From positions 34,244 through 98,243 of the forward strand of contig JBMYVD010000001.1 of assembly GCA_049606035.1 (NCBI GenBank): a DNA stretch of 64,000 nucleotides, written 5' to 3'. The notes under the pieces were generated by a model that saw nothing but the letters and a program-made list of their open reading frames with translations, was not told the DNA's origin and did no database searches. The DNA is from Candidatus Poseidoniaceae archaeon (lineage in GTDB: Archaea > Thermoplasmatota > Poseidoniia > Poseidoniales > Poseidoniaceae). Positions 24,090-56,859 of this stretch are shown here, piece by piece; position 1 is the first letter of the stretch, and each line of letters opens with the position of its first letter. The translations under genes were made by a program, and so were the position numbers.

Positions 24090-26170
24090 GCGAAGTCTGC
24101 GAGATTACTGGATTGTCAAAGGGTGACGCGACAAAATTATCCTACCTACATAAGCACATTACTCAGGGTAGCGAAATACCAATTCCGGATGAAAAGTCAT
24201 TGAGTGGATTCATCAAACCTTTAGAGAACACTGTTTCCTCCAACAGAATCCACAACAGTGAGCAAAAGAGGAAAGATAGTTTGCTAAAACACTTAGAGAA
24301 AAGCATTGCTTCAAAGTTTGAGGGAGCAAAACTTTCTCCATTTGGCTCCGCAGAGAGCGGACTTTCCCTTAAAGGAGGAGATTTTGACCTGTGCCTACAA
24401 ATCCCGAACGCTGACGAAAAGAAAACCATCAAACGAATAGGTGGAATGCTAAGAGGTCAAGGTATGGAGAAAGTACAGACAATTACCAGAGCAAAGGTAC
24501 CTATAGTCAAGTTCATTGACCCTCGAAGTGGCCTAAATGTTGACATCTCAATCAACAATTCACTAGCATTGTACAACACTAAATTGCTATCTTCATACGC
24601 CAAAATGGACAAGCGAGTGAAGGATCTTGCAATTTGTGTTAAGCACTGGGCCTTACACAGAAATGTTTCAGATTCGGTAAATGGAACACTATCATCATAC
24701 GCATGGTCAATCCTTGTAATCAACCACTTACAAGAGCAACAGGTGATCCCAAACCTGCAAAGTGGAGAGGATAGAACCATAATCGAGATAGACGGAAAAG
24801 AATTTGACATTACAGTGAATGAAGATGCTTCTCTTGCTCAACCAAGTCAACAAAATATCGCAGAATTAGCAATGTCATTTTTCAGAAATTATGCAACGAA
24901 GGACTGGGAAAATGAAGTGATTTCTATTCGAAATGGTAAATCCATCTCAAGAGACGAAAAGGGATGGATGAATGAAAATCCAACAGCACTAGAGATTTAC
25001 AACAGCGATAAGGAAAATCCGGGAAAGATGGGAGAGCACCATCTAGCTATTGAAGACCCATTTGAGACCGACCATGACCTGTGCAGGGTTGTTCGCGCCG
25101 AAGGTGAATTACGGATTAGAAATGAATTACTCAGGGCTGCAGAGTTGTTTGGAAGCGGCTCTACTTGGAAGGAAATCTGCGAAACCGTAGACGCTGATAG
25201 ATTGAAAGGCATGGAACCAGTTGACATTTTCCACGATCTGCGTGATAAAAACGACGACTTGGTTAGAAACATGTTGGAGAAAACCAAAGCAGAAATGGAT
25301 GCCGTTGACAGGCTGATAGACGCATTGGAATCTGAGCGACAGTCCACACTTAGAATGGCTAAAGCAATGCGTGGAGTTATTGAGGAAACTTCAGACTTGA
25401 GGAAGGAACACAAAGCGATTATCACAGGCCTAAAATCCAGGAACAAAGAAATCGATGAAATCAAAGTAAAAAGAGACAAAATCAACTCTGACATCATCCT
25501 CCCAATACACATGATTGAGGATGAATTATCCAAAGTTTACAATAGACTTACTGAGGAATTAGACATCCACAGAGTTCCTTCTTTAGCCAAAGAAAAGGAA
25601 CAGTTTTCTTGGTTCATGGAATTGCAAGCAATGCACGGTAAGGCAAGAGAGGCAAGTGAACTCCATCACAGATTCGTCGAGTTGGTAAAAGAGCAGAAAG
25701 AGGAAATCAAGAAATTGAAGATTTATGAAACCAAACACGATGATGCAACCGCAAAACTGCTCCAAGATGAACCGATGTTAAAGGACAAAAACATCAACTC
25801 CAAGGAAGTCGGTTCTTACGACAGACGTGTTCACAATATTCAGAGGGCTTTGAGACAGAGGCGAGGGGAAATGCACAAACTTCGCCGAGAAGCTGGCCGT
25901 TTGGATGCTTGGCTGCGCAAAAAATCTGGCGACCAAAACCGTGGGAGAGGTCGTGGCAAAGGAAACCGCAGAGGCCAAAAACCGAGAGAAAAGAAAGAGG
26001 AGTCTGGCCCCATGACCCTGGGGGACATTTCCGGGTTACTATCTGGCATGGGTACAGGATCATCGAGCAAAAGAACAAGGAAGGTCAGTTCCAAGAAGGC
26101 TGGAATGCGCAAAATGGGCAACTTAGGTGCACACAGAGGCTCTAGAAGTCAATTCAAAAAGAAAGAGTGA
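24086..26170 (+). CDS. Cid1/GLD-2/Trf4-like terminal nucleotidyltransferase (Pol-beta NTase plus PAP/OAS1 substrate-binding domain) fused to coiled-coil and RG-rich basic tail
   Basis: FGSAESGLSLKGGDFDL; AKVPIVKF; NVDISINN; NTKLLSSY; VKHWA; GTLSSYAWSILVINHLQ; C-terminal RGRGRGKGNRRG. Confidence 0.8.
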   Translation: MSEVCEITGLSKGDATKLSYLHKHITQGSEIPIPDEKSLSGFIKPLENTVSSNRIHNSEQKRKDSLLKHLEKSIASKFEGAKLSPFGSAESGLSLKGGDFDLCLQIPNADEKKTIKRIGGMLRGQGMEKVQTITRAKVPIVKFIDPRSGLNVDISINNSLALYNTKLLSSYAKMDKRVKDLAICVKHWALHRNVSDSVNGTLSSYAWSILVINHLQEQQVIPNLQSGEDRTIIEIDGKEFDITVNEDASLAQPSQQNIAELAMSFFRNYATKDWENEVISIRNGKSISRDEKGWMNENPTALEIYNSDKENPGKMGEHHLAIEDPFETDHDLCRVVRAEGELRIRNELLRAAELFGSGSTWKEICETVDADRLKGMEPVDIFHDLRDKNDDLVRNMLEKTKAEMDAVDRLIDALESERQSTLRMAKAMRGVIEETSDLRKEHKAIITGLKSRNKEIDEIKVKRDKINSDIILPIHMIEDELSKVYNRLTEELDIHRVPSLAKEKEQFSWFMELQAMHGKAREASELHHRFVELVKEQKEEIKKLKIYETKHDDATAKLLQDEPMLKDKNINSKEVGSYDRRVHNIQRALRQRRGEMHKLRREAGRLDAWLRKKSGDQNRGRGRGKGNRRGQKPREKKEESGPMTLGDISGLLSGMGTGSSSKRTRKVSSKKAGMRKMGNLGAHRGSRSQFKKKE

Positions 26171-31227: not shown

Positions 31228-32043
31228 CATACCTTCTTTGCCAACCTTCCAACCTAATTCGGTTACTGGCGTATCATCTCTACACAGTGGGTTTGTGTGG
31301 TTTAAGTGGATGAATACTACTTCGCCATCACCTTCTCTACGCTCACCTAACATCTGTAGAGTTTGCTCAACGGGAGGATGTGGAACTTTACTCTGGTCAC
31401 GATGTTTGAGTTCATCTGCACTGTAGAATGTACCATCTATGAGTGCAATATCTACCTCTAAATGGTTCAACCACGCTCTCAAATCATGACCTCGTAGTGT
31501 TTCTTGCCATGTATCATGGTCAGGTAAGAATAGCAGAGTTTTCTCTGCCTTGATTAGATATGCATGCATATCAGATAACTCATCTCTGTGAGGGACTTCG
31601 ATTGCTTCAACAATTACTCCAGGTAATTGATACACACTTGCCACTCTAGGGATGAAAACTCCATCCGAGAGTAAAGTGGACCAGTGGGGTGTTCTCTCGA
31701 TTAGATCGAGCATCATCTTTGAGCAATACAAATTGACGCCTTTGGCTGCCATGGTTTCTTTCCCAAACAAACCCAAACCGTCGACGTGACCAATGTGGGC
31801 ATGAGTAAGGAAAACTGATTCCACTGAATTACAGCCCCAAATTCTCAGTTGATCACCAAGATGGCGGGTCGCTTCGAAGAGATGTTTACCACCTTCTGCA
31901 TCTGTTAAACCGATTGATACCGGATACCTCTGTTCAAGGTCTGAACAGCAATCACAACCCACCTGAGGAACTCCTCCATCTTGAGCAGAACCCAAGAGAG
32001 TGACTTCCACCACGAAGACCAACCTCAGATCCGGCGAACCCAT
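31210..32043 (-). CDS. PqqB-like metallo-beta-lactamase-fold protein (start trimmed to MGSPDLR)
   Basis: [36 protein letters not shown], terminal GMSFSL resemble PqqB. Confidence 0.6.
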
Positions 32044-35000
32044 TGACGGGTCGTTGGGTCTCGAGTATACCAAGCACCGCTTGAAGCAGGGTACTCCAAC
32101 CACTCATTTCCATCGCTTCGAATCGAGCCAACCTCGTACATTGTTGGCCCTGTCGGTGCAGCAGGTTGAGGCATAACAGCCTGATTACCTGGTAGCATTG
32201 CAGGGTCTGGAGAAGCCGCTTGCACAACAGGTTGAACACTTGGTTGCTGATATTGTGAATAATCAGGCTGAGCATTCATGTTTGGCATAGCAGGTTGGGC
32301 GTACATGTTAGGCATGGCTGGTTGGGCATTCATGTTAGGCATAGCAGGTTGAGATACTGCTCCTGCCAAGTTGATACCAGCGTCCCAATCCTTATCCTCT
32401 CCCTTTCCTCTTACCCTTGAGATAACCAAAGCGAGGACAATCAATGCTAGAATAACGCCGACAGATATGCCTCCGTATTTGAGAATACTTCCACTCGATT
32501 CTTCGATTACAGCTTCACAGCCGTTTTCCTTTGCAACGCCAGCAATCTCGGGGCATTCATCAGCATTCTTACCAACCGGGTTATCTCCAAATCCGTCCAT
32601 ATCTGTATCATTCCATTGACTGGATTCTTCAGGGAATGCATCAATAATATCGGCCCAGCCATCGTTATCTGTATCTACACATCCAAGAACATCTCCTTTG
32701 AATGAGAATCCTGTTTCATCAGGGCATGAATCTGGACTTGTTCCATCAGGGTTGTCTCCATATCCATCGCTGTCACTGTCTGCCCACTGAGTTGGGTCAA
32801 TCGGTTTCCAATCTGTACCCACTTCTGGGTCACCCCAACCGTCTCCATCATAGTCCGGGCAACCAACAACATCGATTGTTGAGTTTCCGTTTACAAGAGG
32901 ACAGTCATCATTTCCGTCTGCGATTCCGTCTTTATCTGTGTCAAGATATTCATCTGGATCCGAAGGGAATGCATCCATAAAGTCAGCCCAGCCATCACTA
33001 TCGCTGTCTGGACATCCGAGGATATCTTCTTGCCATGAGTCTCCTGGCAATGTTGGACATGCATCTTGATCTCTTGCGTACTGATAGTATTCACCGGGCC
33101 AGTTTTCATTTCTTTCAGTCCAAGAAAGGTTTCCGTAATTATCACCAAAACCGTCTTCATCCCAATCTGACCATTGTGTATTATCTGTTGGGAAAGCATC
33201 CGCACCGTCTTCTATTGTCCAATCATCATCTGCAGCGGAATATCCATCATTATCTGTATCTGGGCAGCCATACCTATCCAATACAGATGTTCCTGGAATA
33301 GAGATACAATCATCAGGAGTATTCCCCTCAGGGTTGTCACCATATCCATCCCCGTCTTCATCACTCCATTGAGTAGAATCTGCGGGAAGGTCATCGATGG
33401 AATCGGCCCAACCGTCACCATCGCCATCAGGACATGCCAAAAGACCACCCAGTGTTGAGTTTCCTGACTCTTGTGGGCATGAGTCCTCTAGGTCAGCATA
33501 TCCATCACTATCTGAATCAACACATCCTGTGTATGAACCTAGGTCGGAAGTACCTGCAACCTTGTTACAATCGTCTTCTGCATCGTTAAATCCATCTCCA
33601 TCATCATCTGAATCTTCATCGGCGTCTCTACAACCATCGCCATCGATATCATTTGATGAATCTGAAGTCCACCAATTTCTTGGAGGGGTGTACGAACTTA
33701 GGCAACCGTCATCTTCATCTTCAACTCCGTCATTGTCATCATCGGTATCTTCGCTTGAATCTTTGCAACCATCATTGTCGAAATCTGTGGTTGAATCGCT
33801 AGTCCAATTCCATGCACCACCTCTCGGGCAATCATCACCTGAGTTGTCAGTTATTCCATCATTATCATCGTCATTGTCACACTCATCGCCTGCTCCATCC
33901 AAATCTGAATCTGTTTGAAGTGGATTATTGGTGTTAGGGCAATTATCCTCAATGTCGATAACACCGTCGTTATCTGAATCCGCGTTGTTTATAGGGTCAA
34001 GGGACCAAATAACCAAATCCAATCCTGCACTGCTAGTTACAGATTGTGTTCCTTTGTTAATTGTTGATTGGAACGAGCCAAAGGCATACGGAATGTCGGT
34101 ATCATTGACCGTTAGGTCAGCAAAGAGGTCATCGGCTGTACTTCCTAAGTTTTCGACCCAATCCCAATCACCATTTGCAGTTAATTTAGCCATGTAGAGG
34201 TCAAGTCCACCATTAGATGTTGCATAATTAACTCCGAAATCTGCAGAACCTGATATTAATCCTCCCACCATTATGTCATCGTTTGAGGTTACTTCAACAG
34301 CATATGCTCTTTCTGTAGAGGCGCTACTACCTGCACTCACAGCCCAATCTGTTTGACCGTTGTTTGCAACTTTAACAACATAAGCGTCGCCATTACCCTT
34401 GTCTGTTAGTGTGTTTTGATTACCTGCATCCATCGAACCAAGGAACACACCACTGACGATTATATCGTCATTAGAGTTGATAGTGATATCTTCAGGGAGG
34501 TTGATCTCTCCTGCAGCGCCAACAAACCCTTTGACACTTTGAACCACTCCGCCCTGACTCCACTTCACTAGGATTGTGTCAGCCTGACTAAGAGCTTGAT
34601 GCGTTTTCCCATTTGCTGAAAATGTACCAGATGTTGTTCCTGTTTGCCAGATGTTACCGTATGAATCAACTACAACTCCTGATGAACGGTCATCACCGAT
34701 TCCACCCGCAGTAGAGACTGAGTTTGTTGTTCCAGAATTTGTATTAAAAATTCCCATAAACATCTCATTATCTGAACTAGTATGAGTTATTCCACCAAAA
34801 TCTGTTGGTCCTTGATGCGTCCCAACTACGACTAAATTTCCTGAAATTGGGTCAAAATCAATACCCGTAACAATGCTATTGTTGGAATCATTATTGGTTG
34901 CAGTACTGAATGAAGTTGCCCACAACCATTGGCCACTGGCGTCGAGTTTTGCTATGAAACCATCAAAATTTTGAGATTGTAATACTGGTGAATTTGATGA

Positions 35001-35444
35001 TGAGCCAAAGACTACCTGACCGAATACCGTTCCGCCAATGTAGATATCTCCGGCCAAATCGGTTGTCATGTCATTTATCAAGGTCAAGCCTTGAGTGGCA
35101 GAAGGCATTACTGCCCATTGCCAATTCCCTTGCTCATCAACCATAGCGACATATGAATCAGCATCCAAAAATTGGTTGTAACCTGATGTTGCTTGTAACT
35201 GAATTCCACCAAAATTTAGATTGTTTCTTGTATCACCTGCAACGACTATCCCTTGAGGGGTCCATTCAATCTCTGACCCATTTACGTGGCCTGTAGCTGA
35301 ACCTGCAGAAATGAGTAATTCTGGTTCAGAATCAGCAAAAAGCACTTTGTTAGATTCAGAAAGTTCACTGTAATCGGAAACCGCAAATATGCTGCTTAGG
35401 AAAATTGCTACTATCATCACGGATATGAAGCCACGCTTGCCCAT
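32025..35444 (-). CDS. Giant surface protein (see finding 32025..32420 for domain architecture)
   Basis: N-terminal signal/TM; GD.Y..K....G...W beta-propeller repeats; DxDxDGxxDxxDxCP repeats; [20 protein letters not shown]. Confidence 0.75.
32272..32355. repeat. About 27-bp tandem repeat (3-4 copies) inside the tail-coding region, encoding AQPAMPNM(N/Y)
   Basis: catgtt(t/a)ggcat(a/g)gc(a/t)ggttgggc repeated; seen directly. Confidence 0.6.
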
Positions 35445-45125: not shown

Positions 45126-45755
45126 TCAGTTGCCCTCCACGATTAGTCTGTAAGCAACCGAAACACCAGCGGATGGTGAAGGTCTTACTACCTTGAGAAC
45201 ACGGTCTGCAAGCCATCCTGCGGGTAGAGGAATGTGCTCTTCATCGTCTGTTGACGCTGAGTCATGTGCTCTTTCAGTGGTTTCCTTAATCACTTGAACA
45301 ACTGGATCGGTAATCAGAATCTTTGGAAGAAGTTCCTTAGCAAGCCTTGACTCACCGGTTTCTGAATCGGTTGTCAATAGACCCCAAGGAGCGAGTTCTT
45401 CTTCCTCACTCTCAACTGGTACTAGTTCCTGGTGAGGTACAAGAACGTGGTTCAGAACGTTGAACTTGGTACCTGCCAAGTCCATGTCATCGTCATCGAG
45501 TGCTTTTCTTGAAATAGTGATTTTTCGGCTTCTTCGCTTCTGTCTGCGCTGACCTAGTTCTGCAAGGGCATTCATTGCGCCGGTGAAAATTTCATCGTCT
45601 TTTGAGACACCGAGAACTGACGCAATCTCGTCGGCCGGCATGGCCTTGATATCTGTCATGTTTCGGTCTGTTGCAAGTTTGTGAGCATATTCTTCTGCTA
45701 TGCCCATTTCCATCAAACGCTTCTTAGTTGCCGACTTTACTACCAAAAAAAACAC
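45126..45755 (-). CDS. rpoH: RNA polymerase subunit H (Rpb5-like C-terminal domain) with about 120-aa N-terminal extension paralogous to the RpoA'' N-terminus
   Basis: C-terminal HVLVPHQEL..LPKILITDPVVQ..VLKVVRPSPSAGVSVAYRLIV; N-terminal [23 protein letters not shown]. Confidence 0.8.
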   Translation of the reverse strand: MFFLVVKSATKKRLMEMGIAEEYAHKLATDRNMTDIKAMPADEIASVLGVSKDDEIFTGAMNALAELGQRRQKRRSRKITISRKALDDDDMDLAGTKFNVLNHVLVPHQELVPVESEEEELAPWGLLTTDSETGESRLAKELLPKILITDPVVQVIKETTERAHDSASTDDEEHIPLPAGWLADRVLKVVRPSPSAGVSVAYRLIVEGN

Positions 45756-45797
45756 ACCCCGCTTTGCCCTAATACACCAGGCCGGTATCTTGTCAGG

Positions 45798-45871
45798 CGG
45801 GCCTGACGGGGTTCGAACCCGCGACCGTCCGGTTAAAAGCCGGACGCTCTACCTGACTAAGCTACAGGCCC
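45798..45871 (-). tRNA. tRNA-Lys (anticodon UUU)
   Basis: Manual fold: acceptor GGGCCTG/CAGGCCC, anticodon stem TCCGG/CCGGA with loop CTTTTAA, T-loop TTCGAAC; CCA not encoded. Confidence 0.8.
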
Positions 45872-45910
45872 AAATGTATGTGTTGGGCTTCTTGGCCGAC
45901 CTGTATGGGG

Positions 45911-45918
45911 TTTTTAAA
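45911..45918 (-). promoter_or_regulatory. TATA-like box TTTAAAAA about 40 nt upstream of the tRNA-Lys 5' end (candidate promoter for the tRNA-rpoH transcript)
   Basis: Seen directly; AT-rich element in otherwise GC-balanced spacer. Confidence 0.3.
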
Positions 45919-46122
45919 TCCTTTGCCACCAATTTTAGCCATAGAAAGGACTACAGGGATGTATCTAAAGGATGATCCCTTCTAATGAGTCTTTTTGACT
46001 TTTAAACATAAAGCCTTCGGCACAAAATTTGTGAAAACGAGCAATAGCGTTGCCGATTAATCAAACACGCAATACACCTCATACAACAAGAAGCATAAAT
46101 CATGCTCTGTTAGAGGTCTGTA

Positions 46123-47484
46123 ATGGCATCTGGAGGACATGGAATTTTCACCCCCGAAGATGCACACTCTGAGGTCGATCGGCAGAAGAGGCCATCTCTG
46201 ACCATGGAATGGTTTCCAAATTCAAAGCAGTGTATTGAACTGACCATCCCTCCTACCGTTTATCCTCCCAGAGAAGACACTGACTTATTGGCCAACAGGC
46301 TAATACAACTAGGGCCTGGAAAAGGAAGAAAATTCCTAGAGATTGGTTGTGGCTCGGGCGCCCTAAGCATTCTCGCATCATCACTAGGATGGAATGTTCA
46401 TGCTTGCGACATAAATCCGTTTGCTGTAGCTGCAACTAGAGGAAATATGGCAAAAAATTTGCAAGACGGCACCATCAAGGAAGGAGGAGTTGGCCCCGAT
46501 GGTTTTCCGTTTGAGGACAAGTTCGATTTGATCCTCTGGAATCTACCCTACATCCCTGCCGATGAGGTGAATGAATTACTTGGCCCAATGGAAGAAGCCG
46601 GACTTATTGACACAGATACACAGGGATTACAAAGTAGGTTCATATCATTAGTTGAGAAAAATAATCTTCTTACAACAAGTGGGAAGATGCTACTTTTAGG
46701 GAGGACTGGAAGTATTGGAGCGTCTGAGAATTTTGCAGTAAGAGATTGGGACACATTAGAGTTTGATGATGGTGAATCATTGACGGTTTTTTGCTTGTGG
46801 AAACCTTGGGAGAACGCCGAAAATGTATTTGTTCAAAGCACTGGTTCAACCAACGATGATCTATTTCACAAATCTGGAATTGGGACCCACATTTCAACTG
46901 CCTTACAAACATCCGGTAGAGGACGAAGAGATAGAAAATGGAATTCTATAGAAGAGTGTTACGCAGGTTCGTGGATTGTAGCAGAAGACACAGAAGTTAA
47001 CCCTGGCCTGCTACAATTATCAGGTGGTTTGGCAGTAATTAAATCAATACAAAGTGATCGCCTCAAACTCAAATGGCCTAACGACATTTTAATCGATGAG
47101 AGAAAATTATGTGGAGTACTCGTAGAGGGTAAATCTTCTCAAGATTCAACCAAAGTTGTTCTTGGAATTGGAATCAATTTGAAAACTTCTGACAAGACAA
47201 TTGACGGAAAGGAAATTAGCACACTTGACGAAATCGCAACAATGGATTTCCACACAATCGATCGAAAACTAAACTCTGAATTATCATCACTAATAGAGGA
47301 GCGTAATGACATACCACCAGTAAACTTTGAATCAATACTAGCAGAAATATTGAGGCATATGAAGTCACTGGGTAGACCCAGATATTGCGAGGTTGTGTAC
47401 GAGAATTTTGATCTCAATGAAAGAGGTGAACTATTATTGGGACACAATGTCATTGATGACGGAGAAGACGTTACTTGGGTCTAG
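46123..47484 (+). CDS. Fusion: class I SAM methyltransferase with NPPY-like motif (PrmC/Mtq2-like) plus biotin-protein ligase (BirA-like) catalytic domain
   Basis: LEIGCGSGALS, DINPFAV, NLPYIP; then QTSGRGRRDRKWNS, KWPNDILIDERKLCGVLVE, GIGINL. Confidence 0.7.
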   Translation: MASGGHGIFTPEDAHSEVDRQKRPSLTMEWFPNSKQCIELTIPPTVYPPREDTDLLANRLIQLGPGKGRKFLEIGCGSGALSILASSLGWNVHACDINPFAVAATRGNMAKNLQDGTIKEGGVGPDGFPFEDKFDLILWNLPYIPADEVNELLGPMEEAGLIDTDTQGLQSRFISLVEKNNLLTTSGKMLLLGRTGSIGASENFAVRDWDTLEFDDGESLTVFCLWKPWENAENVFVQSTGSTNDDLFHKSGIGTHISTALQTSGRGRRDRKWNSIEECYAGSWIVAEDTEVNPGLLQLSGGLAVIKSIQSDRLKLKWPNDILIDERKLCGVLVEGKSSQDSTKVVLGIGINLKTSDKTIDGKEISTLDEIATMDFHTIDRKLNSELSSLIEERNDIPPVNFESILAEILRHMKSLGRPRYCEVVYENFDLNERGELLLGHNVIDDGEDVTWV

Positions 47485-48330: not shown

Positions 48331-49653
48331 ATGGAGGAGGATTCTCAACAAGAATTCAAGCAAATTGGAATGCTCCAGCTAATCCGTAATATGCTCTCTC
48401 CAAGGACCTTGCCACACATTATCATGATAGCAATTATATCATCCATTCTGCTATTTTTGGTCAGCACGCAAGAGGTCCTTGTTGCAATGTCTTTCATATC
48501 CTTGTCAATTTCCTATGTCGTAGTATCAATGCTATCTAACAATTCAATGATACAAAGTCTAACCAAATTACCTGAAGAAAAAGGCGATTCACAATGGATT
48601 GTGCGTTTCTTATTCAGTTTTCGAATAACGATAGTACCGATTCTAATTGCTGCAGTAATTGTTGGACTATTATGGAGTTTAACTGGAGGAAATGACAACG
48701 GTTGGATATCTCCTGCTCTGGCTTCCTTGTTTATCGTCTGGTCGATTGCCCAAGCTGCTTCGTTTAGAACAGGAATGGTGGAGTGGTTGGCGAATGGACT
48801 CGGAGATGCGAAACTTCATACTTACCAAGAGAAGATATCAACTGCTTCACAAGTTGTAGTTGTCCAAGTTTTTGCCTTGGTGATATTATGGCTTGGCCAA
48901 ATAATTAGCCAGGCAGAGAAAATGACGCTTCAGGATGCGCTTCTAGGCGGAATCGCTTTCATCATTGTCAGCGTTATTCTCCAAGCTATCACGCTTTGGT
49001 TGACCAGAAGTGAGAGAGAGGCATCAGGGAATGAAAAGGGAATGGCTGCATTTTCATTCAAGTGGATGATAGTAGCACAATTATTCATCACATGGCACGC
49101 ATTTAGCATATACCGCCGTACTGCAATGAGCCCGTCTGACCTATCAACAATTATCGAAGAAGGTCTTCTAATGGCATTCACGGTAATTTTCGCAGTCTGG
49201 TCACTTACAACATACACAGTTAGAGATGGCAAGCGACTGATATCTGAACATGCATCATTACCCTTAGGAATTTCATTTGGATACGCCTATGCAGGTTCTG
49301 TTGCAATGTTGACTGGAACGTTTGATAGTCTAAAGGAAGTCATGATTTTTGGACACGTATTGTCGATTTGTGCAATGATGCTATTGTTGAGACCTACCTT
49401 AAGAACTAGCAGAATGACTTCTGAGATGTTCCTCAAAGCAATAAATGTCGACATTACAATGCCAGAAGAAACTGAAGAGGTTGAGCCCGAACAGGACGAA
49501 GATTCAGAGGATGACAATTCAGAAACAGAAGGAGAAACTGTTGATGAAGAATGGCAAGAAGACGGAGAAATCGATTGGGAGAAAGGCGTTGACATCTCTG
49601 AGGGAACCGACTGGGATGGAAAAGATTCTGAACAGGAAGAAGAATCATACTAG
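48331..49653 (+). CDS. Polytopic membrane protein with acidic C-terminal tail, hypothetical
   Basis: About 10 TM helices; C-terminal E/D-rich 70 aa. Confidence 0.5.
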   Translation: MEEDSQQEFKQIGMLQLIRNMLSPRTLPHIIMIAIISSILLFLVSTQEVLVAMSFISLSISYVVVSMLSNNSMIQSLTKLPEEKGDSQWIVRFLFSFRITIVPILIAAVIVGLLWSLTGGNDNGWISPALASLFIVWSIAQAASFRTGMVEWLANGLGDAKLHTYQEKISTASQVVVVQVFALVILWLGQIISQAEKMTLQDALLGGIAFIIVSVILQAITLWLTRSEREASGNEKGMAAFSFKWMIVAQLFITWHAFSIYRRTAMSPSDLSTIIEEGLLMAFTVIFAVWSLTTYTVRDGKRLISEHASLPLGISFGYAYAGSVAMLTGTFDSLKEVMIFGHVLSICAMMLLLRPTLRTSRMTSEMFLKAINVDITMPEETEEVEPEQDEDSEDDNSETEGETVDEEWQEDGEIDWEKGVDISEGTDWDGKDSEQEEESY

Positions 49654-50574
49654 ACTAAGATTGGATTTTTCTTCTAAACCGGAGACTACCGCAACCACTC
49701 TGATTCTGCCTTGTAAGTCATCACTTACACGGGCACCCAAGATGACCTGAGCATCTTCATCAAAGCGTGCAGTGAAAGCGTCTGCGATCAAGCCGACTTG
49801 TCCAACAGTCATGCCCGGTCCCCCTTCAATTTGGAGTAAACATGCCTTAGCTCCGTCCATTGACAAATCTGCAAGTGGGGCACTAAGAGCATCCTCAAGG
49901 AGGCCAATTGCATCATCTGGGTCACCTTGGCCAACCATAAGAGTAGAACCTCCAGAGTGGCCAACAATAGTTTTCAAATCCATCATATCGAGATTAATCA
50001 AACCAAGTCTCATTAAAGTCCTGACCAATCCTTCAACGAATTCTTCAACCCAGGACGCTCCGACCCTCCAATCTGTTCCTCTTTCTCTTGCTTGCCAAGC
50101 CAATCTATCTAGACTCAACCTTACACAAACATCCGAGTTGGATTCCAACCTTGTAAGTCCCTCGTTGCTCACTTTCAATCTTGCTTCTTGTGCCTCGAAA
50201 GGTATTGCTGCGATAGATATCACAATCGCACCTGATAACCGTGCTTGTCTGGCAAATTCCGACGAGGCACCAGTTCCTGTACCACCACCCAAGCCAGTTA
50301 GTAAGACAACTAACTCAACATCATTTAGTAGGGTTCTGGATACCGAAGAGGCTTGCCTCATTCTCTGCTCTCCTAAAGGTGGAAGCGCTGCGCAGCCTGT
50401 TGAATCTAAGTCCTTACCCAAACGAATAACGTGTGATTCAGGATAGTCAAATGAGGACTCATCCGCATCAATTAGTACCAAATCAATACCGTGCCCTGTT
50501 CTTGAATGGGCACGCTTTGCCCATGAGCAACCTAATCCACCGACGCCTGCAATCAGGATTTGGGCGCCATCCAT
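49645..50574 (-). CDS. FtsZ/tubulin-family GTPase, short divergent form (309 aa, no C-terminal tail)
   Basis: GVGGLGCSWA; GGGTGTGASSEFA tubulin signature; GLINLDMMDLKTIV T7-like loop. Confidence 0.75.
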   Translation of the reverse strand: MDGAQILIAGVGGLGCSWAKRAHSRTGHGIDLVLIDADESSFDYPESHVIRLGKDLDSTGCAALPPLGEQRMRQASSVSRTLLNDVELVVLLTGLGGGTGTGASSEFARQARLSGAIVISIAAIPFEAQEARLKVSNEGLTRLESNSDVCVRLSLDRLAWQARERGTDWRVGASWVEEFVEGLVRTLMRLGLINLDMMDLKTIVGHSGGSTLMVGQGDPDDAIGLLEDALSAPLADLSMDGAKACLLQIEGGPGMTVGQVGLIADAFTARFDEDAQVILGARVSDDLQGRIRVVAVVSGLEEKSNLSLV

Positions 50575-51053: not shown

Positions 51054-51857
51054 TTGGCGATGCTAATGTCGAAGGTTTTCCAACGAAGTCTCCTGCCTAT
51101 GGTGCTTGTAACATTGATGCTCTTACCGGGCATCACTAATGCCTATCCAGACGGCATAGGGGCAGGCGGTCATTCTCACAACGGAGAAACTATCGATGAC
51201 GTCGCCAAAGAAGGTTGCTTATGCCACGGTGACCAACCGAGTAACGATGTCATGGTCCTCCTTGTTGGAGTCCCGTACACATGGGTTGCAAATGCAGAAT
51301 ATGACCTGAGGCTGGAAGTCATCGGCGGCCCAGATACAAACATGGGTGGATTCTCTGCAAGAGTCAGCGCTGGCGAATGGTCTGGCGACGGAGAAGCTTG
51401 GGGAGACGATGCTGCAACAAGGACACACCAATCACCCAACTCTAGAATTTTTGAACTAACATGGACCGCACCAGCCGACAACTCCAGCGGAACAACTGTC
51501 GACTTCTGGATTAGCGGGAATGCGGTTAATGGAGCAGATGGGCCTGCTGGAGATTATTGGAACCAAATTGTGTTCAATCTAATCGAAGCACCTGAGGATG
51601 ACAAGAGAGGAGATAGAACACTAATCGCAGGAAGCGGCACTCCAACAGCACCAGAGAGCAAGGCTGGAGAAATCGACATCTCGACACTCGGCGCTGGTTT
51701 CAGAGCTCACTGGCTTGGATTACTAGGATTCGGCGCCGTTATCGCAGTGATTGTATTCTGTGGACTTCTACTCAGATATGGATTCTCAACATCTTACAAA
51801 GGCCGCAGCAACTTGCTGAGACTGAGATACAAGATTAACAGAAGAGGTGACCAGTGA
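51054..51857 (+). CDS. Secreted protein with signal peptide and C-terminal TM anchor; His-rich region and CLCH motif
   Basis: Signal peptide, GHSHNGE..EGCLCHGD, C-terminal TM; first gene of the Rieske/cyt b cluster. Confidence 0.5.
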   Translation: MAMLMSKVFQRSLLPMVLVTLMLLPGITNAYPDGIGAGGHSHNGETIDDVAKEGCLCHGDQPSNDVMVLLVGVPYTWVANAEYDLRLEVIGGPDTNMGGFSARVSAGEWSGDGEAWGDDAATRTHQSPNSRIFELTWTAPADNSSGTTVDFWISGNAVNGADGPAGDYWNQIVFNLIEAPEDDKRGDRTLIAGSGTPTAPESKAGEIDISTLGAGFRAHWLGLLGFGAVIAVIVFCGLLLRYGFSTSYKGRSNLLRLRYKINRRGDQ

Positions 51858-52309
51858 TGGCTAAAGACACGATCACACAACTTCTTGAGAAGGTTGCTGC
51901 AGGAAAGGTGAGCGTCAAGGATGCTCGCACAGCTCTGGAAGATGCATCATTAACTGAAGAACAGATGGATGCTGCAATTAACCACGGAGTATTCAACCCA
52001 GCAGAACCCGGTACAGTAATTTCAGCATCTTTGGCTCCATCCGGTAAATCCGCTCTTACCATATTCTTCTTTTCTTGGGGAATTTTCTGGGCCCTGTACT
52101 GGTTTGGAACCATGCTATACGGGCTGCTCAACGGCTCTAGTTGGGACCAACAACAACTTTCCTACCACATGGCGATGGGTATTACAACCCTAATTATGAT
52201 GGGAATCATCTATCTGAAATTCGTGTTGCCTGACACAATTATCGTCAAGCACAGCCAAAACAAGTACATCCCTGAACATCAGAAGGATTGGAGAGAATAC
52301 AAGTGGTGA
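51854..52309 (+). CDS. Membrane protein (3 TM), hypothetical
   Basis: ORF track; translationally coupled (ATGA overlap) to the upstream gene. Confidence 0.4.
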   Translation: MMAKDTITQLLEKVAAGKVSVKDARTALEDASLTEEQMDAAINHGVFNPAEPGTVISASLAPSGKSALTIFFFSWGIFWALYWFGTMLYGLLNGSSWDQQQLSYHMAMGITTLIMMGIIYLKFVLPDTIIVKHSQNKYIPEHQKDWREYKW

Positions 52310-52313
52310 TATT

Positions 52314-53162
52314 ATGGACGACAGGAGATTAAGACCAGCACCATCACTAGAAGACTCAGTTTTAGGCTCCCTTGGAGAAGTTTCAGTCAACCGTAGACAA
52401 TTCATGCGCTACGGATTCAACGCTGCTGGTGGTGTACTAGCAGCAACCCTTGGAGCGTTAGGTTTCGCAGCGATTCTTATGCCTCCATCCGGTGGAGGAG
52501 GAGGAGACTCCTCGGTCCTATACTGGGCAAAGGGTCGTGAGGAAGAAGCATGGTATGGAGCAAAGCACCTACAACCAATGATGAAGTCTGATTTTGAAGC
52601 AGAAGCCGCCAACTCGAATGTCGGCATGGCTGGTGCTCAAGGTGTATGGAACGGTCTACCTGTAATCGTCAACTATGTACCTCACGCCGAGAACTCTGGC
52701 AAGCCTGTGGCAGACAACCTACCAAGATTCCAAGAAATGGCAGGTTACGACATCGGTGGCAACTACGTTGGCCATGCTACCGAATTCTTGCTTGGGAACT
52801 CGGAAGTATTCGACCCCAACAACAACCTAGTCATGAGTTTCGCAAGATGCACACACCTGTGTTGTATCCCAGGATGGCAACTTGTAACAAACACTCAGAC
52901 CGATGACAACTGGACACCGGGTGGTGGAGACGATGGTGGGAGCAAGATGTTCTGCATCTGCCACTCCAGCAGATTCGACCCTACTGCAATCGAGGTCAAC
53001 AGAAACGCAAACAGGTCAACTGGTGCTTCTTTCGAATACCTAGGTATTAGAAGAGCTGGTGGCCCTGCTCCTCTTGGACTACCAATCATTCCAATCATTA
53101 TGAACGGAGACACAATCGAAGCGTCTTCTGATTACACGGGCTGGTTGACCTACTGCGACTGA
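52314..53162 (+). CDS. Rieske [2Fe-2S] protein with twin-arginine signal
   Basis: NRRQFMRY Tat motif; CTHLCC and CICHSS Rieske boxes. Confidence 0.85.
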   Translation: MDDRRLRPAPSLEDSVLGSLGEVSVNRRQFMRYGFNAAGGVLAATLGALGFAAILMPPSGGGGGDSSVLYWAKGREEEAWYGAKHLQPMMKSDFEAEAANSNVGMAGAQGVWNGLPVIVNYVPHAENSGKPVADNLPRFQEMAGYDIGGNYVGHATEFLLGNSEVFDPNNNLVMSFARCTHLCCIPGWQLVTNTQTDDNWTPGGGDDGGSKMFCICHSSRFDPTAIEVNRNANRSTGASFEYLGIRRAGGPAPLGLPIIPIIMNGDTIEASSDYTGWLTYCD

Positions 53163-53171
53163 GGTGATTAT

Positions 53172-54038
53172 GTGAGCACAATTTTCTGGGTACTTTGGTT
53201 CTTCATAGCATTCATTATTGTCTTAATTGCGTTTACTTTGCGCAAGGAAAACGAAGAGATTCCTCGTAGAGAAATCCTACGTGCTGTTGAATCCAGCGGC
53301 AAGATGGGATTCGCTGAGCGTGCGTTCTTGTGGGTATTCTCATTCTTGGATACTAGATTTAGGATTCAAGACTACTGGAATATGTCAAAGGGTGCATACT
53401 ACAACATGCACAGGCAGATGCCACTTACACACGCAGAGAAATACAAGCTGCGAATTATTTGGTACTGGTACCCACTCTACTGCTTGGGTGGAATTTCATT
53501 CCTATCATTCATCATTCTAGTACTAACTGGAACCGTTCTCGGAATCTACTATGTCCCTGGTGGAGAGGGTGATCCATCCCCTGCATATGCGAGTATGCAA
53601 TTCATCATGACACAACTTCCGTTCGGATACATTATCCGTGCAGTACACCATTGGGGTACACACTTCATGGTAGCATCGGTATTCTTACACATGTGTAGAG
53701 TATACTTTACTGGTGCATACCGCAACCCACGTGAATTGAACTGGCTGATCGGTGTTGCCTTAATGGCACTAACAATTGTCTTCGGTTACTCTGGATACCT
53801 ACTTCCATGGGATACATTGGCTTACGGAGCTGCTGTTATCGGAATTAACCTAGCAAACGCTACACCATTGATTGGAAAGTACATCGCTACACTACTATTC
53901 TCTGGTTCATCCTTGTCCCACAGAACGGTAACACGAATGTACTTCATTCACGTGTTTATTTTGCCAGTTATCGTTACAACTCTAATCATCATACATTTGT
54001 TCATTGTATGGGTTCAAGGAATAGCGGAGCCGCATTGA
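53172..54038 (+). CDS. Cytochrome b, N-terminal (heme-binding, b6-like) half
   Basis: HHWGTHFMVASVFLHMCRVYFTGAY and SLSHRTVTRMYFIHVFILP His ligands; GTG start per track. Confidence 0.85.
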   Translation: MSTIFWVLWFFIAFIIVLIAFTLRKENEEIPRREILRAVESSGKMGFAERAFLWVFSFLDTRFRIQDYWNMSKGAYYNMHRQMPLTHAEKYKLRIIWYWYPLYCLGGISFLSFIILVLTGTVLGIYYVPGGEGDPSPAYASMQFIMTQLPFGYIIRAVHHWGTHFMVASVFLHMCRVYFTGAYRNPRELNWLIGVALMALTIVFGYSGYLLPWDTLAYGAAVIGINLANATPLIGKYIATLLFSGSSLSHRTVTRMYFIHVFILPVIVTTLIIIHLFIVWVQGIAEPH

Positions 54039-54054
54039 TACAGGAGGAATAAGT

Positions 54055-56859
54055 TTGGGAATTATAGACAATTTTGGAGCAGTAGCATCCTCGTACATGG
54101 ATCAAAAAGAGCAGTTGCAATCTGCTGAAGAAAAGCGTAAGCGTACTCGTGAAGGACACGGATTCTGGCCTCATGAAGTTCTACGTGACAGCCTTATCTT
54201 CGGATTCATGATATGTACACTTCTATTCTACGCATGGTTAATTCCACCACCACTTCACAGTGCAGCGGACCCATTCGCTCAAGCAGGATTCGTTTTCCCT
54301 GACTGGTATGTACTGTTTTCTTACGGTTACCTGCGATGGGGGGAATATCTACCTCAATTTGACGTACCTTTAGGGCCAATTGGTGATTTCTTTGGACAGC
54401 CATCGTTCCCATGGAACGCTGCATGGTGGGGTGCTTTCCTAACCGGAATCCCTGTCGGTATTCTAGCACTACCTCCTTTCTTGGGCGGTCGCGAAAAGAG
54501 ACCTGTTGAAGACCCATGGTTTGCTAGTGCTGGTGTAGTTTACTTAGCTCACATTTGGTTCATTTCAGTATTCTCTATCAACATCTTCCTTGAATTGTAT
54601 GGAAAGAATAGAAGCGACTTCTGTAAGTTAGACAGCCACGGCGATTTACTATGTGGTGTAAGGGATCCGTGGATTGCTGATTTATTCAATATGATACCCT
54701 GGGTAATGACAGGTATTCTTCTCTGGATAATGATCTACTTCATCGCTAAGTGGCTATTCAACAACGCATGGGGTGCAAGATTCACTCCAGCACACGGTAA
54801 GAAACTCATCGTTGGTGCTTTCATTGTTGCAACCGCTGCAAGCGTTGTTACATACCCGGTATACGATAACGGATTCTGGGATGCAAGGGGACTCTTAACA
54901 ATCTCAGATTACGAGAAATTGGAAGAGATGAGGTCGCAACCAACCGATGTTCAAGTAAATGAGAGAACTGAATTCATGGACCTACAAGGATTTGATGGAG
55001 ACATAGTTCCGGCAGCTGCATGGATGGATTGGAACATATATCAACCGACGCGGTATTATCTCATTGATTTCTCAGACAATAACGGACATCAAGATTTAGA
55101 TTCTGGTGTAAATGGCAAGTCTGGATTACAGAATTATTCTGCTGATGAAACTGTATGGGCTACCGGTTCATTCATCATCACTGATGATTATTGGCCTGAA
55201 GACAACGACTTCACTACAGTACCTTTAGACGCTACGTGCGCTACCAGAGCGAGTGAAGTCCTAATCGATGGGGGAGATTCAACCTCTGGAATGATTCAGT
55301 CAAGCCTAGTTATCACCCAAAGAGACAGTGGCGACGTTGTAGTCGACACTGATTGTAATACAGGAGAGTTAGGCGTGGAACTGGCATCGGGTACATACGA
55401 CTACGAGTTCAAGGTAGAATCAACCGATGGCCTAAGAGCAAACAACACAGTTACTGTTGAAACCTTATTCACAATTCAAGCATTCCAGCCACTTCTTCTC
55501 TATGATGACGATGCTGGAAACGGCCTTGCTGGAATGACTGTTGACCTATCTAACTCCCTAAACATGGAGTTAGAAGGTGAGAATATGGGAGTTATGGTGA
55601 ACCCAACTTACCACACCAACCCTCTAGCATTGGATGCTAAGTTGACTTATGCAATGTTCATCCCATGTATTACCGCAGGTGCAATCACATTCGTGGTATT
55701 GAGAAACATGGCTCGTGGATACGAGTTCGAAATGAACAAGTGTTACGGCTGTGACCTGTGTGATGATGCATGTCCAGTCAGACTCTTCAATGCTGGTGAC
55801 AAGTTGAACATCATTTACAACTCGTGGAATAACGAAGACGATGGTGTACCGCTGTATTCGTGTTTGACATGTACTGCATGTACAAACGCATGTCCACAAT
55901 TGGTCAACTACGATTCATACGTTGACATTCGCCGCTCACTTATCGTTGGTGGCCCGGCTGCTGAAATCCCTCACACTGTCCTGCAAGCAGTACTAGCTGC
56001 AGAAGCGGAGGAAGAGAGTGACGCTGATTTCGTCTCAGTCGAAGATTATCCAATCGATTCAAACATTGGCTACTACCCAGGATGTGTAGACTACCTAGAC
56101 CAAGAGATGGTATTCAGCCACCTAAACGAAGGCTCGATGGACCTAGGAGAAACCACAACTGCAGCATTCACATTATTCGAGGAGATGGGAACAGATGTCT
56201 CATATCTCGGACGTGACTTCCTGAAGTGTTGTGGGCACGACCAGAAGTGGCAAGGTCTTGATGAAGTGTTTGACAAACTCAAGGCATACAACCAGAAGAA
56301 GATCGAAGCATCCGGGATTGACACACTAGTTTCCTCATGCGCTGAATGTTTCAGAACATTCGCTCGTGATTACGAATTAGAAGGTGTCAAAGTCATGCAT
56401 ACAACAGAATTCCTAATCGAAAATGGATTCGACATGCAACTGAAGGCAGAGGATGAATTGACGGTTACCTATCACGACCCATGTAGACTAGGTAGACAGA
56501 TGGGAATCTATGATGAACCACGTGAACTAGTTGCTGGAGTCGAAGGTGTTGAACTTGTAGAGATGGAACACCATGGCGAAGATGCAATGTGCTGTGGAGT
56601 CTCAAGCATGATGTCTTGTAATGAGAACGCTCGTGCACTGAGAGTATCCAGAATGGAGGAAATCCGCAACACTGGCGCAGACATGATGATTACATCCTGT
56701 CCAAAGTGTGTATCTCACTTTGAGTGTCTCAAGTTCGAAGGCGACGAAAGGCATGACATCGAAATCCTTGATGTTGTATCATTCCTAGCACGCCAGGTTG
56801 AAGCAAAGAAGTCACTTGCTGAAGAAGCAAGTACATCGAGAGTTTCTGTTGAAGCTTAA
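54055..56859 (+). CDS. Fusion: cytochrome b C-terminal half (subunit IV-like, 5 TM) plus extracellular domain plus TM plus HdrD/GlcF-like domain (2x[4Fe-4S], 2xCCG)
   Basis: PDWYVLFSYGYLRW; CYGCDLCDDACP, CLTCTACTNACP; YPGC..CCGHD..SSCAEC and HDPC..MCCGVSS..TSCPKC. Confidence 0.75.
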   Translation: MGIIDNFGAVASSYMDQKEQLQSAEEKRKRTREGHGFWPHEVLRDSLIFGFMICTLLFYAWLIPPPLHSAADPFAQAGFVFPDWYVLFSYGYLRWGEYLPQFDVPLGPIGDFFGQPSFPWNAAWWGAFLTGIPVGILALPPFLGGREKRPVEDPWFASAGVVYLAHIWFISVFSINIFLELYGKNRSDFCKLDSHGDLLCGVRDPWIADLFNMIPWVMTGILLWIMIYFIAKWLFNNAWGARFTPAHGKKLIVGAFIVATAASVVTYPVYDNGFWDARGLLTISDYEKLEEMRSQPTDVQVNERTEFMDLQGFDGDIVPAAAWMDWNIYQPTRYYLIDFSDNNGHQDLDSGVNGKSGLQNYSADETVWATGSFIITDDYWPEDNDFTTVPLDATCATRASEVLIDGGDSTSGMIQSSLVITQRDSGDVVVDTDCNTGELGVELASGTYDYEFKVESTDGLRANNTVTVETLFTIQAFQPLLLYDDDAGNGLAGMTVDLSNSLNMELEGENMGVMVNPTYHTNPLALDAKLTYAMFIPCITAGAITFVVLRNMARGYEFEMNKCYGCDLCDDACPVRLFNAGDKLNIIYNSWNNEDDGVPLYSCLTCTACTNACPQLVNYDSYVDIRRSLIVGGPAAEIPHTVLQAVLAAEAEEESDADFVSVEDYPIDSNIGYYPGCVDYLDQEMVFSHLNEGSMDLGETTTAAFTLFEEMGTDVSYLGRDFLKCCGHDQKWQGLDEVFDKLKAYNQKKIEASGIDTLVSSCAECFRTFARDYELEGVKVMHTTEFLIENGFDMQLKAEDELTVTYHDPCRLGRQMGIYDEPRELVAGVEGVELVEMEHHGEDAMCCGVSSMMSCNENARALRVSRMEEIRNTGADMMITSCPKCVSHFECLKFEGDERHDIEILDVVSFLARQVEAKKSLAEEASTSRVSVEA

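Follow-up and report, generated by a model that had tools for sequence, protein, structure and literature searches.

The 64,000-nucleotide stretch analyzed here, hereafter the window (contig JBMYVD010000001.1 of a Candidatus Poseidoniaceae archaeon, positions 34,244 to 98,243), carries at 46123..47484 on the plus strand a gene that joins an N-terminal S-adenosylmethionine (SAM)-dependent methyltransferase (MTase) and a C-terminal biotin protein ligase (BPL) on a single polypeptide. Such a fusion had been proposed by an earlier sequence-only reading of the window, and the observation is confirmed: all the motifs quoted there are present in the protein, in an agreement far beyond chance, and both halves pass profile tests. 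We are close to certain that the gene encodes a real protein of bifunctional architecture, composed of an intact BPL and an intact N-methyltransferase of the Mtq2 family, which has been fixed in the Poseidoniia. The fusion is ancestral to the marine Poseidoniia, being found in the Poseidoniaceae (marine group IIa, MGIIa), the Thalassarchaeaceae (MGIIb) and related marine Thermoplasmatota.

Neither enzyme family is new in itself; what is new is the way in which the two are joined and the fixation of this architecture throughout the clade. Full-text literature searches returned no description of an MTase-BPL fusion, and a survey of archaeal gene fusions (PMC11237513) reports a PycA-BPL protein in Methanocella with no mention of an MTase-BPL protein in the examined portions of its text and supplements. 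The earlier remark that no such fusion had been described therefore holds for the literature, but not for the databases, since JGI labels some members 'biotin-(acetyl-CoA carboxylase) ligase/methylase of polypeptide subunit release factors' and thereby already names both halves. BPLs are classed by their N-terminus, which consists of nothing, a DNA-binding domain, or a large eukaryotic extension. The fusion represents a fourth arrangement, a predicted competent protein N-methyltransferase at this position, and it is fixed throughout a whole class of uncultured marine archaea that abound worldwide.

Architecture and distribution of the fusion

The features of the gene are given below with their positions in the window. 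Conservation was assessed in 37 diverse representatives with 27-48 % identity to the query, to which all counts out of 37 refer. Secondary structure and model confidence (predicted local distance difference test, pLDDT) are from AlphaFold2.

46123..47484, plus strand: MTase-BPL fusion open reading frame (ORF), 453 codons and a stop, uninterrupted; 453 aa
46123..46233, plus strand: lineage-specific N-terminal extension, aa 1-37, with a helix at 11-21 and the first strand of a beta-hairpin
46234..46806, plus strand: class I SAM-dependent N-methyltransferase domain of the Mtq2/HemK2 family, aa 38-228, assigned from profiles, hhalign and fold
46258..46281, plus strand: VYPPREDT, aa 46-53, Mtq2/HemK2-type motif ahead of motif I (compare VYxPxEDS/T in stand-alone Mtq2)
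46336..46368, plus strand: SAM-binding motif I LEIGCGSGALS, aa 72-82; G75, G77 and G79 invariant in 37/37
46537..46557, plus strand: motif IV WNLPYIP, aa 139-145, the N-x-P-Y catalytic motif; W139, N140, P142 and Y143 invariant in 37/37
46579..46617, plus strand: loop LGPMEEAGLIDTD, aa 153-165, conserved in sequence and of low pLDDT; presumed substrate-binding loop after motif IV
46819..47322, plus strand: BPL catalytic domain, aa 233-400, fused straight onto the last MTase strand with no linker
46906..46941, plus strand: biotin-binding loop QTSGRGRRDRKW, aa 262-273; Q262, G265, G267 and W273 invariant in 37/37
47071..47085, plus strand: KWPND, aa 317-321, with the adenylation lysine K317; P-N-D invariant
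47164..47181, plus strand: ATP-binding motif GIGINL, aa 348-353; G348, G350 and N352 invariant
47323..47481, plus strand: C-terminal region of the BPL, aa 401-453, helices and a small beta (SH3-like) cap domain in the AlphaFold2 model

The positions listed for VYPPREDT, LEIGCGSGALS, WNLPYIP, QTSGRGRRDRKW and GIGINL were verified in the protein, as were those of DINPFAV (aa 96-102) and KWPNDILIDERKLCGVLVE (aa 317-335). The start codon at 46123 is backed by family conservation of residues 8-30 (F9, E17, W30). The NCBI record of the identical protein (P0002) is 426 aa long and begins at the internal Met28 (46204); we favor the 453-aa form because residues 8-30 are conserved across the family. Between rpoH and the divergently oriented fusion gene, a tRNA-Lys(UUU) gene is located at 45796-45871 on the minus strand (detected by ARAGORN and, at 71.6 bits, by Rfam). 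A mechanically defined ORF at 45700-45975 on the plus strand runs through the complement of this tRNA gene, and the long N-terminal extensions in the gene calls P0076, P0106 and P0118 are spurious for this reason.

AlphaFold2, supplied with the family alignment, yields a confident two-domain model (pLDDT 83.6; predicted TM-score, pTM, 0.85), in which only residues 1-7 and the loop 155-166 following motif IV have low confidence. The MTase half (residues 38-228) adopts the seven-stranded class I fold. Its last strand (219-226) passes directly into the first BPL strand (234-236), leaving no room for a flexible linker, and the junction sequence CLWKPYExAE is itself conserved in the family.

Fused homologues are numerous. 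Of 5.8 billion proteins searched, 1,587 matched; in the best 120 clusters, all the proteins have ~450 aa and both domain sets, down to 57 % identity. Among the GTDB species representatives, family-specific patterns recovered the fusion in 31 species, all of them Poseidoniales metagenome-assembled or single-amplified genomes, and all full-length with 44-89 % identity. Among 1.84 billion representatives, a profile built from only the MTase half retrieved ~65 cluster representatives (at the 50 %-identity level) of 430-670 aa with the MTase at the N-terminus, and stand-alone proteins of 190-215 aa show up only below ~95 bits. PF03099 and an MTase domain are both present in 37/37 of the sampled representatives. 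Among the named members are Candidatus Poseidoniaceae archaeon, Thalassarchaeaceae (MGIIb), 'Thermoplasmatota archaeon' and 'Euryarchaeota archaeon'.

The sequence-only reading had pointed out that an assembly or frameshift error joining hemK and birA would undo the finding, and that fused and split orthologues should be distinguished. Beyond its a priori possibility, this explanation could draw only on a few short homologues (P0130, P0144, P0159, P0192, P0194), and we consider its probability negligible. The same ORF recurs in hundreds of independent assemblies, drawn from ENA, JGI, NCBI, Logan and Tara and including single-cell genomes and contigs of 0.8-1.9 Mb, with the junction conserved. 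The orthologues are fused throughout; those that seem to be split, i.e. the five just named and P0203, are contig-end fragments or have garbled, frameshifted tails. One metagenome-assembled genome (SP3054) holds two copies of the fusion on different contigs, a full-length one (L012, 219-1571; 57 % identity) and one cut by a contig end (L031, 6001-6699; 60 %), which suggests strain mixing or bin contamination rather than a true duplication.

Members with only ~30 % identity keep the gene order of the window, in which rpoA-rpoB-rpoH and the fusion gene diverge and the latter is followed by small ORFs, an FtsZ-family gene and the cytochrome b cluster. The fusion is therefore one vertically inherited orthologous locus that originated in a single ancient event. 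No reverse-order or independent BPL-MTase fusion was found among the matches. The odd ones among them lack a BPL: P0239 is KsgA-Mtq2 (RrnaAD and MTS, 476 aa), P0258 combines Mtq2 with a weak Trm112p-like region and a second MTase (537 aa), and P0268 joins a short-chain dehydrogenase/reductase (SDR) to an MTase.

Identity of the two halves

The profile comparisons proposed by the sequence-only reading bear out its assignment of the C-terminal half to the biotin ligases. PF03099 (BPL_LplA_LipB) matches aa 257-352 with E=1.6e-14 (54.4 bits versus a cut-off of 21), and TIGR00121 (birA_ligase) is passed at 87.8 bits versus the curated cut-off of 83.1. The best PDB sequence matches for aa 236-401 are the biotin ligases of Mycobacterium tuberculosis, Escherichia coli and Pyrococcus horikoshii. 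With Foldseek, residues 233-453 align over ~231-236 columns with the P. horikoshii BPL (235 aa) at a TM-target of 0.74-0.76, so that almost all of this enzyme is covered, the C-terminal cap included, and the BPLs of Aquifex aeolicus and M. tuberculosis are aligned equally well. The cap is thus recognizable from the Foldseek span and from the AlphaFold2 strands at 419-444; the Pfam BPL_C model finds no match in the fusion protein.

The catalytic motifs of the ligase are all present: the GRGRxxRxW loop and the Q ahead of it, the S-T(N) motif that contacts biotin, KWPND, and GxGxN. The biotin-contact motif appears as STGSTN at aa 239-244, with S242 and T243 invariant in 37/37, and K328 and G331 are invariant in addition to Q262, G265, G267, W273, P319-N320-D321, G348, G350 and N352. 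The residue at position 317 is K in the window protein and in 29/37 of the representatives and R in the other 8/37, with the remaining catalytic columns unchanged. We take QTSGRGRRDRKW to correspond to Q112 and G115-W123 of E. coli BirA and S242/T243 to its S89/T90, in agreement with the PDB sequence alignments; likewise, K317 matches K183 of E. coli BirA and K111 of the P. horikoshii enzyme, and GIGINL matches the GxGxN motif of BirA. Taken together, motifs, profiles and fold show that the C-terminal half, as predicted from its sequence, is a complete class-I-type BPL with every catalytic motif. The loss of catalytic residues that the sequence-only reading had envisaged as a possible objection is not seen, as these residues are conserved.

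Lipoylation, which had been offered earlier as an alternative to biotinylation, does not fit the C-terminal half: the GRGRxxRxW loop is specific to BPLs, and together with the TIGR00121 score it identifies a biotin ligase and speaks against one for lipoate of the LplA/LipB type. A class II BirA was rejected as well, as the N-terminal winged helix-turn-helix (wHTH) domain is not present and the N-terminal 230 aa are the MTase. The PRK11886 BirA models score 53-80 bits versus cut-offs of 293-489 and match the ligase core only.

As for the N-terminal half, Pfam detects MTS, PrmA and Methyltransf_25 at aa ~53-153 with E between 1e-7 and 1e-8, and among the NCBIfam models PRK14968.1-3, an archaeal HemK-related family labelled 'putative methyltransferase', scores best (E=2.3e-20), ahead of PrmC and TIGR00537, with all of these below their cut-offs. 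PDB sequence matches at aa 45-157 include GenN, N6AMT1 and HemK. By itself the PDB sequence search is ambiguous, with PrmA, N6AMT1, GenN and RsmC all at ~31 bits, and the ambiguity was therefore settled by profile-profile comparison with archaeal Mtq2. Against a profile of 15 stand-alone archaeal relatives, hhalign aligns aa 38-197 with 99.95 % probability (E=1.6e-38). Most of these relatives pass both TIGR00537 (HemK2/MTQ2) and PRK14968.1-3, and we regard them as bona fide HemK2/Mtq2 for this reason. The match starts at aa 38, and the extension at aa 1-37 is absent from stand-alone Mtq2.

The structural comparison points in the same direction. The neighbors of the model of the MTase alone (pLDDT 80.9) are protein and amine N-methyltransferases, and HEMK2/N6AMT1-TRMT112 gives the best structural combination (identity 23-25 %, root-mean-square deviation 4.0 Å, TM-target 0.68). 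The next-closest folds are METTL21 lysine MTases, PrmC, Trm11 and GenN, with RsmC and RsmD also among the neighbors. Invariant columns comprise G75, G77 and G79, D96 and P99 of the motif II region, and W139, N140, P142 and Y143, while VYPPRED(T/S) is near-invariant and present in 36/36 members covering the region. At the x position of motif IV, most members have L and three have P, with T or M in others. The sequence-only reading took NLPY for an [ND]PPY-type motif, and we agree: stand-alone archaeal Mtq2 proteins also vary at this position (NPPY, NAPY, NSPY), and NLPY is therefore a legitimate N-x-P-Y variant. From the conservation of their motifs, both halves look like working enzymes.

Other MTase families were tried and rejected. 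Bacterial PrmC/HemK (TIGR03534) reaches 59.2 versus 199.1 bits and matches profile positions 59-180 only, i.e. the MTase core; in place of the helical release-factor-binding domain of PrmC, the N-terminus of the AlphaFold2 model consists of one helix and a hairpin. For PrmA (PF06325/TIGR00406), the Pfam match covers positions 161-233 of 296, and TIGR00406 scores 35.5 versus 183. A BioC-type (biotin-synthesis) O-methyltransferase was ruled out, since the protein has the N-x-P-Y motif of N-methyltransferases, the reported NCBIfam matches do not include BioC, and MGII archaea are seen as biotin auxotrophs. No RNA-binding domain is recognizable in the fusion protein.

The fusion can be compared with several known enzymes. 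With the class I BPLs (P. horikoshii PH0147, PDB 1WNL and 2EJG; A. aeolicus; M. tuberculosis BirA), it shares the catalytic domain and the C-terminal cap as well as the STN, Q, GRGRxxRxW, KWPND and GxGxN motifs; unlike these enzymes, which have no N-terminal domain, it carries a predicted competent MTase of ~230 aa joined directly at the N-terminus. In the P. horikoshii enzyme, dimerization is mediated by the N-terminal strand, which in the fusion is continuous with the MTase. The class II BPLs (E. coli and Staphylococcus aureus BirA) resemble the fusion in having an additional domain before the ligase core, and the MTase occupies the position of their regulatory wHTH domain. In contrast to class II BirA, however, this domain is a Rossmann-fold MTase and no DNA-binding motif is found.

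Mtq2 (HemK2, N6AMT1, KMT9; Haloferax volcanii HVO_2744; human HEMK2-TRMT112, PDB 6H1D and 6K0X) is a Trm112-dependent N5-methyltransferase of the GGQ glutamine of release factors, and the MGII core list is without Trm112. The fusion shares with it the core, VYxPxEDT, motif I and N-x-P-Y, but differs in its 37-aa N-terminal extension, a divergent C-terminal beta-hairpin, the BPL partner and the gene context. With bacterial PrmC/HemK (PDB 2B3T, 1T43 and 1NV8) it has in common the N-x-P-Y motif and an EPxxAL-like stretch after motif IV (LGPMEEAAL), but not the N-terminal helical domain for release-factor recognition. BPL and Mtq2 are both fusion-prone in archaea, as exemplified by PycA-BPL in Methanocella (PMC11237513), KsgA-Mtq2 (P0239) and the Mtq2-Trm112-like-MTase protein (P0258). 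In those proteins the partners are linked functionally or by operon, a BPL with its substrate enzyme or Mtq2 with an operon neighbor or activator, whereas no functional or operonic link is known between the Mtq2 and BPL of the present fusion.

Possible functions of the fused enzymes

The sequence-only reading had named biotin-dependent carboxylases as genes to look for elsewhere in the genome, and accC, pccB and pycB do belong to the published MGII core. In the KEGG-annotated core list (PMC6336850 Supplementary Data 10), accC is present in 96/95 % of the MGIIa/MGIIb genomes, pccB in 93/98 % and pycB in 78/92 %, along with birA (79/88 %), aRF1 (91/85 %) and ksgA (92/90 %). The same list has no entry for hemK, prmC, MTQ2, N6AMT1, EC 2.1.1.297, 'putative methylase' or TRM112. 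Biotin auxotrophy is attributed to MGII (PMC10160649), which thus need a ligase for scavenged biotin. Such a ligase is required by biotin-dependent carboxylases, and the fusion is the one gene of birA type seen in MGII. Orthologues of Mtq2 have been reported from every archaeal phylum, the H. volcanii Mtq2-Trm112 complex methylates the GGQ glutamine of aRF1, and neither the H. volcanii nor the yeast Mtq2 can dispense with the NPPY Tyr (PMC6144793); in MGII, nothing other than the fusion is visible as a candidate for this universal function. The fusion appears to hide the 'missing' Mtq2 of MGII genomes. Because annotation pipelines give a single label (birA, 'methyltransferase' or 'hypothetical'), half of the function of the gene drops from metabolic reconstructions.

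Our preferred explanation, to which we assign a probability of roughly 0.5, is that the BPL serves PycB and the acyl-CoA carboxylase carrier as housekeeping ligase, that the MTase is the Mtq2 equivalent acting on aRF1, and that the two activities are uncoupled. The BPL half would make biotinyl-5'-AMP from scavenged biotin and ATP, and the biotin would then be passed to the acceptor lysine in the biotinyl domains of the MGII carboxylases, i.e. PycB and the acyl-CoA carboxylase served by AccC/PccB. The MTase half would be the only Mtq2-type enzyme of the lineage, most likely N5-methylating the GGQ glutamine of aRF1. It would work without a Trm112 partner, and the rigidly attached body of the BPL may give the stabilization that Trm112 provides elsewhere. 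The two reactions probably take place on different substrates, so that the protein would be a fixed join of constitutive protein-modification enzymes rather than a coupled pathway.

Several observations weigh against this explanation. The curated Mtq2 cut-offs are missed by the MTase half (TIGR00537, 54.7 versus 87 bits; PRK14968.1-3, 72.9 versus 162), and its first 37 and last ~35 residues cannot be aligned to Mtq2 by hhalign. Because of the missed cut-offs and the un-Mtq2-like ends, we stop short of calling it a proven equivalog of Mtq2; on the sequence comparisons its homology is certain, and we classify it as a divergent member of the Mtq2/HemK2 family. Nor is the fused MTase any longer in the usual KsgA-Mtq2 context. 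Stand-alone archaeal Mtq2 genes occupy translation contexts such as the conserved cluster L21e-RpoF-DUF655-KsgA-Mtq2, which is mirrored by the KsgA-Mtq2 fusion P0239 (compare L041, 1476-2902). Given this divergence in score, ends and gene context, a changed substrate is plausible. The missing Mtq2 and Trm112 rest on a core list annotated with KEGG orthology (KO) terms, and a divergent stand-alone Mtq2 could escape KO assignment. In the window and 31 MGII loci, no second Mtq2, second BPL, biotinyl-domain protein or L21e-RpoF-KsgA cluster occurs, which is uninformative in that these loci make up ~3 % of the genome. Lastly, the modelled junction, rigid and linker-less (pTM 0.85) and kept clade-wide, exceeds what a neutral join would require and could reflect functional coupling.

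The sequence-only reading had suggested that methylation and biotinylation of one substrate are coupled. This is unsupported by the genomic comparisons: we see no sign of coupling because no biotin-related neighbor, carboxylase or biotin carboxyl carrier protein (BCCP) gene occurs at the window locus or in the loci compared of distant members, no BPL adjoins the stand-alone Mtq2 genes of other archaea in the loci inspected, and neither a reverse-order nor an independent form of the fusion was found among the matches. We consider it unlikely, therefore, that the MTase is a neofunctionalized Mtq2 paralogue and that a biotinyl-domain protein or carboxylase subunit recruited by the BPL would be both biotinylated and N-methylated (on Gln or Lys). 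Such dual modification would account for the confident two-domain model with its rigid, linker-less junction, for the retention of both active sites across deep divergence, and for an MTase that falls under the Mtq2 cut-offs with its N- and C-terminal parts remodelled; the structural neighbors also include METTL21 protein-lysine MTases and HEMK2/KMT9, which methylates Gln and Lys. However, the loci compared offer no neighborhood link to carboxylases or BCCP, the fusion arose only once with no BPL-Mtq2 adjacency in other archaea, and we know of no methylation of biotinyl domains. A new MTase substrate would moreover leave MGII without a recognizable Mtq2, although the enzyme is reported in all archaeal phyla (PMC6144793). 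Similarly doubtful is the possibility that the fusion is obligatory, either with the BPL having replaced Trm112 as a built-in activator or solubilizer, or with biotin and N-methyl groups placed on the same carboxylase or carrier protein.

Rather unlikely, too, is that the two activities are independent while the MTase acts on another target, such as a different translation factor or ribosomal protein (at Gln, Lys or an N-terminal amine) or an RNA base (m2G, m6A), with methylation of aRF1 being absent or carried out by an unrecognized enzyme. The equally weak PDB sequence matches (~31 bits) to PrmA, N6AMT1, GenN and RsmC, the presence of Trm11, RsmC and RsmD among the fold neighbors, and the missed Mtq2 cut-offs would all be compatible with such a target. 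The strong and specific profile-profile homology to archaeal Mtq2 speaks against it, as do the preserved VYxPxEDT and N-x-P-Y motifs, the archaeal HemK-related family as best NCBIfam match, and the lack of a recognizable RNA-binding domain. More improbable still is a non-catalytic half, in which the MTase would be a SAM-sensing, structural or dimerization module replacing the wHTH domain, or the BPL a biotin/ATP-binding regulator of the MTase, as the sequence-only reading had also considered. The MTase does stand where class II BirA proteins have their wHTH domain, and K317 is replaced by R in 8/37 representatives. Nevertheless, G-x-G-x-G, D96 and N-x-P-Y of the MTase are invariant or nearly so over 27-100 % identity, and the same is true of S-T, Q, GRGR..W, PND and G-x-G-x-N of the BPL, which is unexpected for a degenerate sensor and makes a mere ligand-binding role of the BPL domain unlikely. 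The MGII carboxylases, furthermore, need a BPL, and the pangenome lists the birA KO only.

If the fusion should be obligatory, through Trm112 replacement or dual modification, it would constitute a new class of BPL, 'MTase-BPL', in abundant ocean archaea, and a mechanistic link between the halves would represent a new principle for both enzyme families. If the halves are unlinked, the protein would be a clean case of a stable fusion of unrelated housekeeping enzymes, calling for caution in 'Rosetta-stone' inference.

Other genes in the window

Downstream of the fusion gene, a short FtsZ/tubulin-family gene (49645-50574, minus strand; ~300-313 aa) is syntenic with it clade-wide (also in L035, L036, L039 and L040). 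It is followed at 51054-56859 on the plus strand by a cluster of three proteins without Pfam match, a cytochrome b (53172-54038) and a 934-aa protein with CCG and 4Fe-4S domains (54055-56859), the synteny of which is kept even in the most distant loci. This cluster possibly corresponds to the 'MGII-specific complex III' that Tully 2019 refers to.

Several large ORFs have no Pfam match at the thresholds used, namely 32025-35444 (minus strand, 1139 aa), 20738-23161 (minus, 807 aa), 18591-20072 (minus, 493 aa), 6667-7893 (minus, 408 aa) and 48331-49653 (plus, 440 aa); the last of these resembles a multi-pass membrane protein with an acidic tail. The gene at 24086-26170 on the plus strand encodes a 694-aa protein with an MTPAP-like central palm (E=1.8e-31) and a PAP_assoc/Cid1-family domain (E=7.6e-13), an architecture of the eukaryote-type non-canonical poly(A)/terminal nucleotidyltransferases that is unusual in an archaeon. 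The transcription termination factor FttA/aCPSF1 is encoded at 3402-5306 on the plus strand (KH_TffA, metallo-beta-lactamase, Beta-Casp and RMMBL domains) and a class Ib (Trp/Tyr) aminoacyl-tRNA synthetase at 5307-6683 on the minus strand. Both are ordinary archaeal housekeeping genes, which help confirm the archaeal origin of the window.

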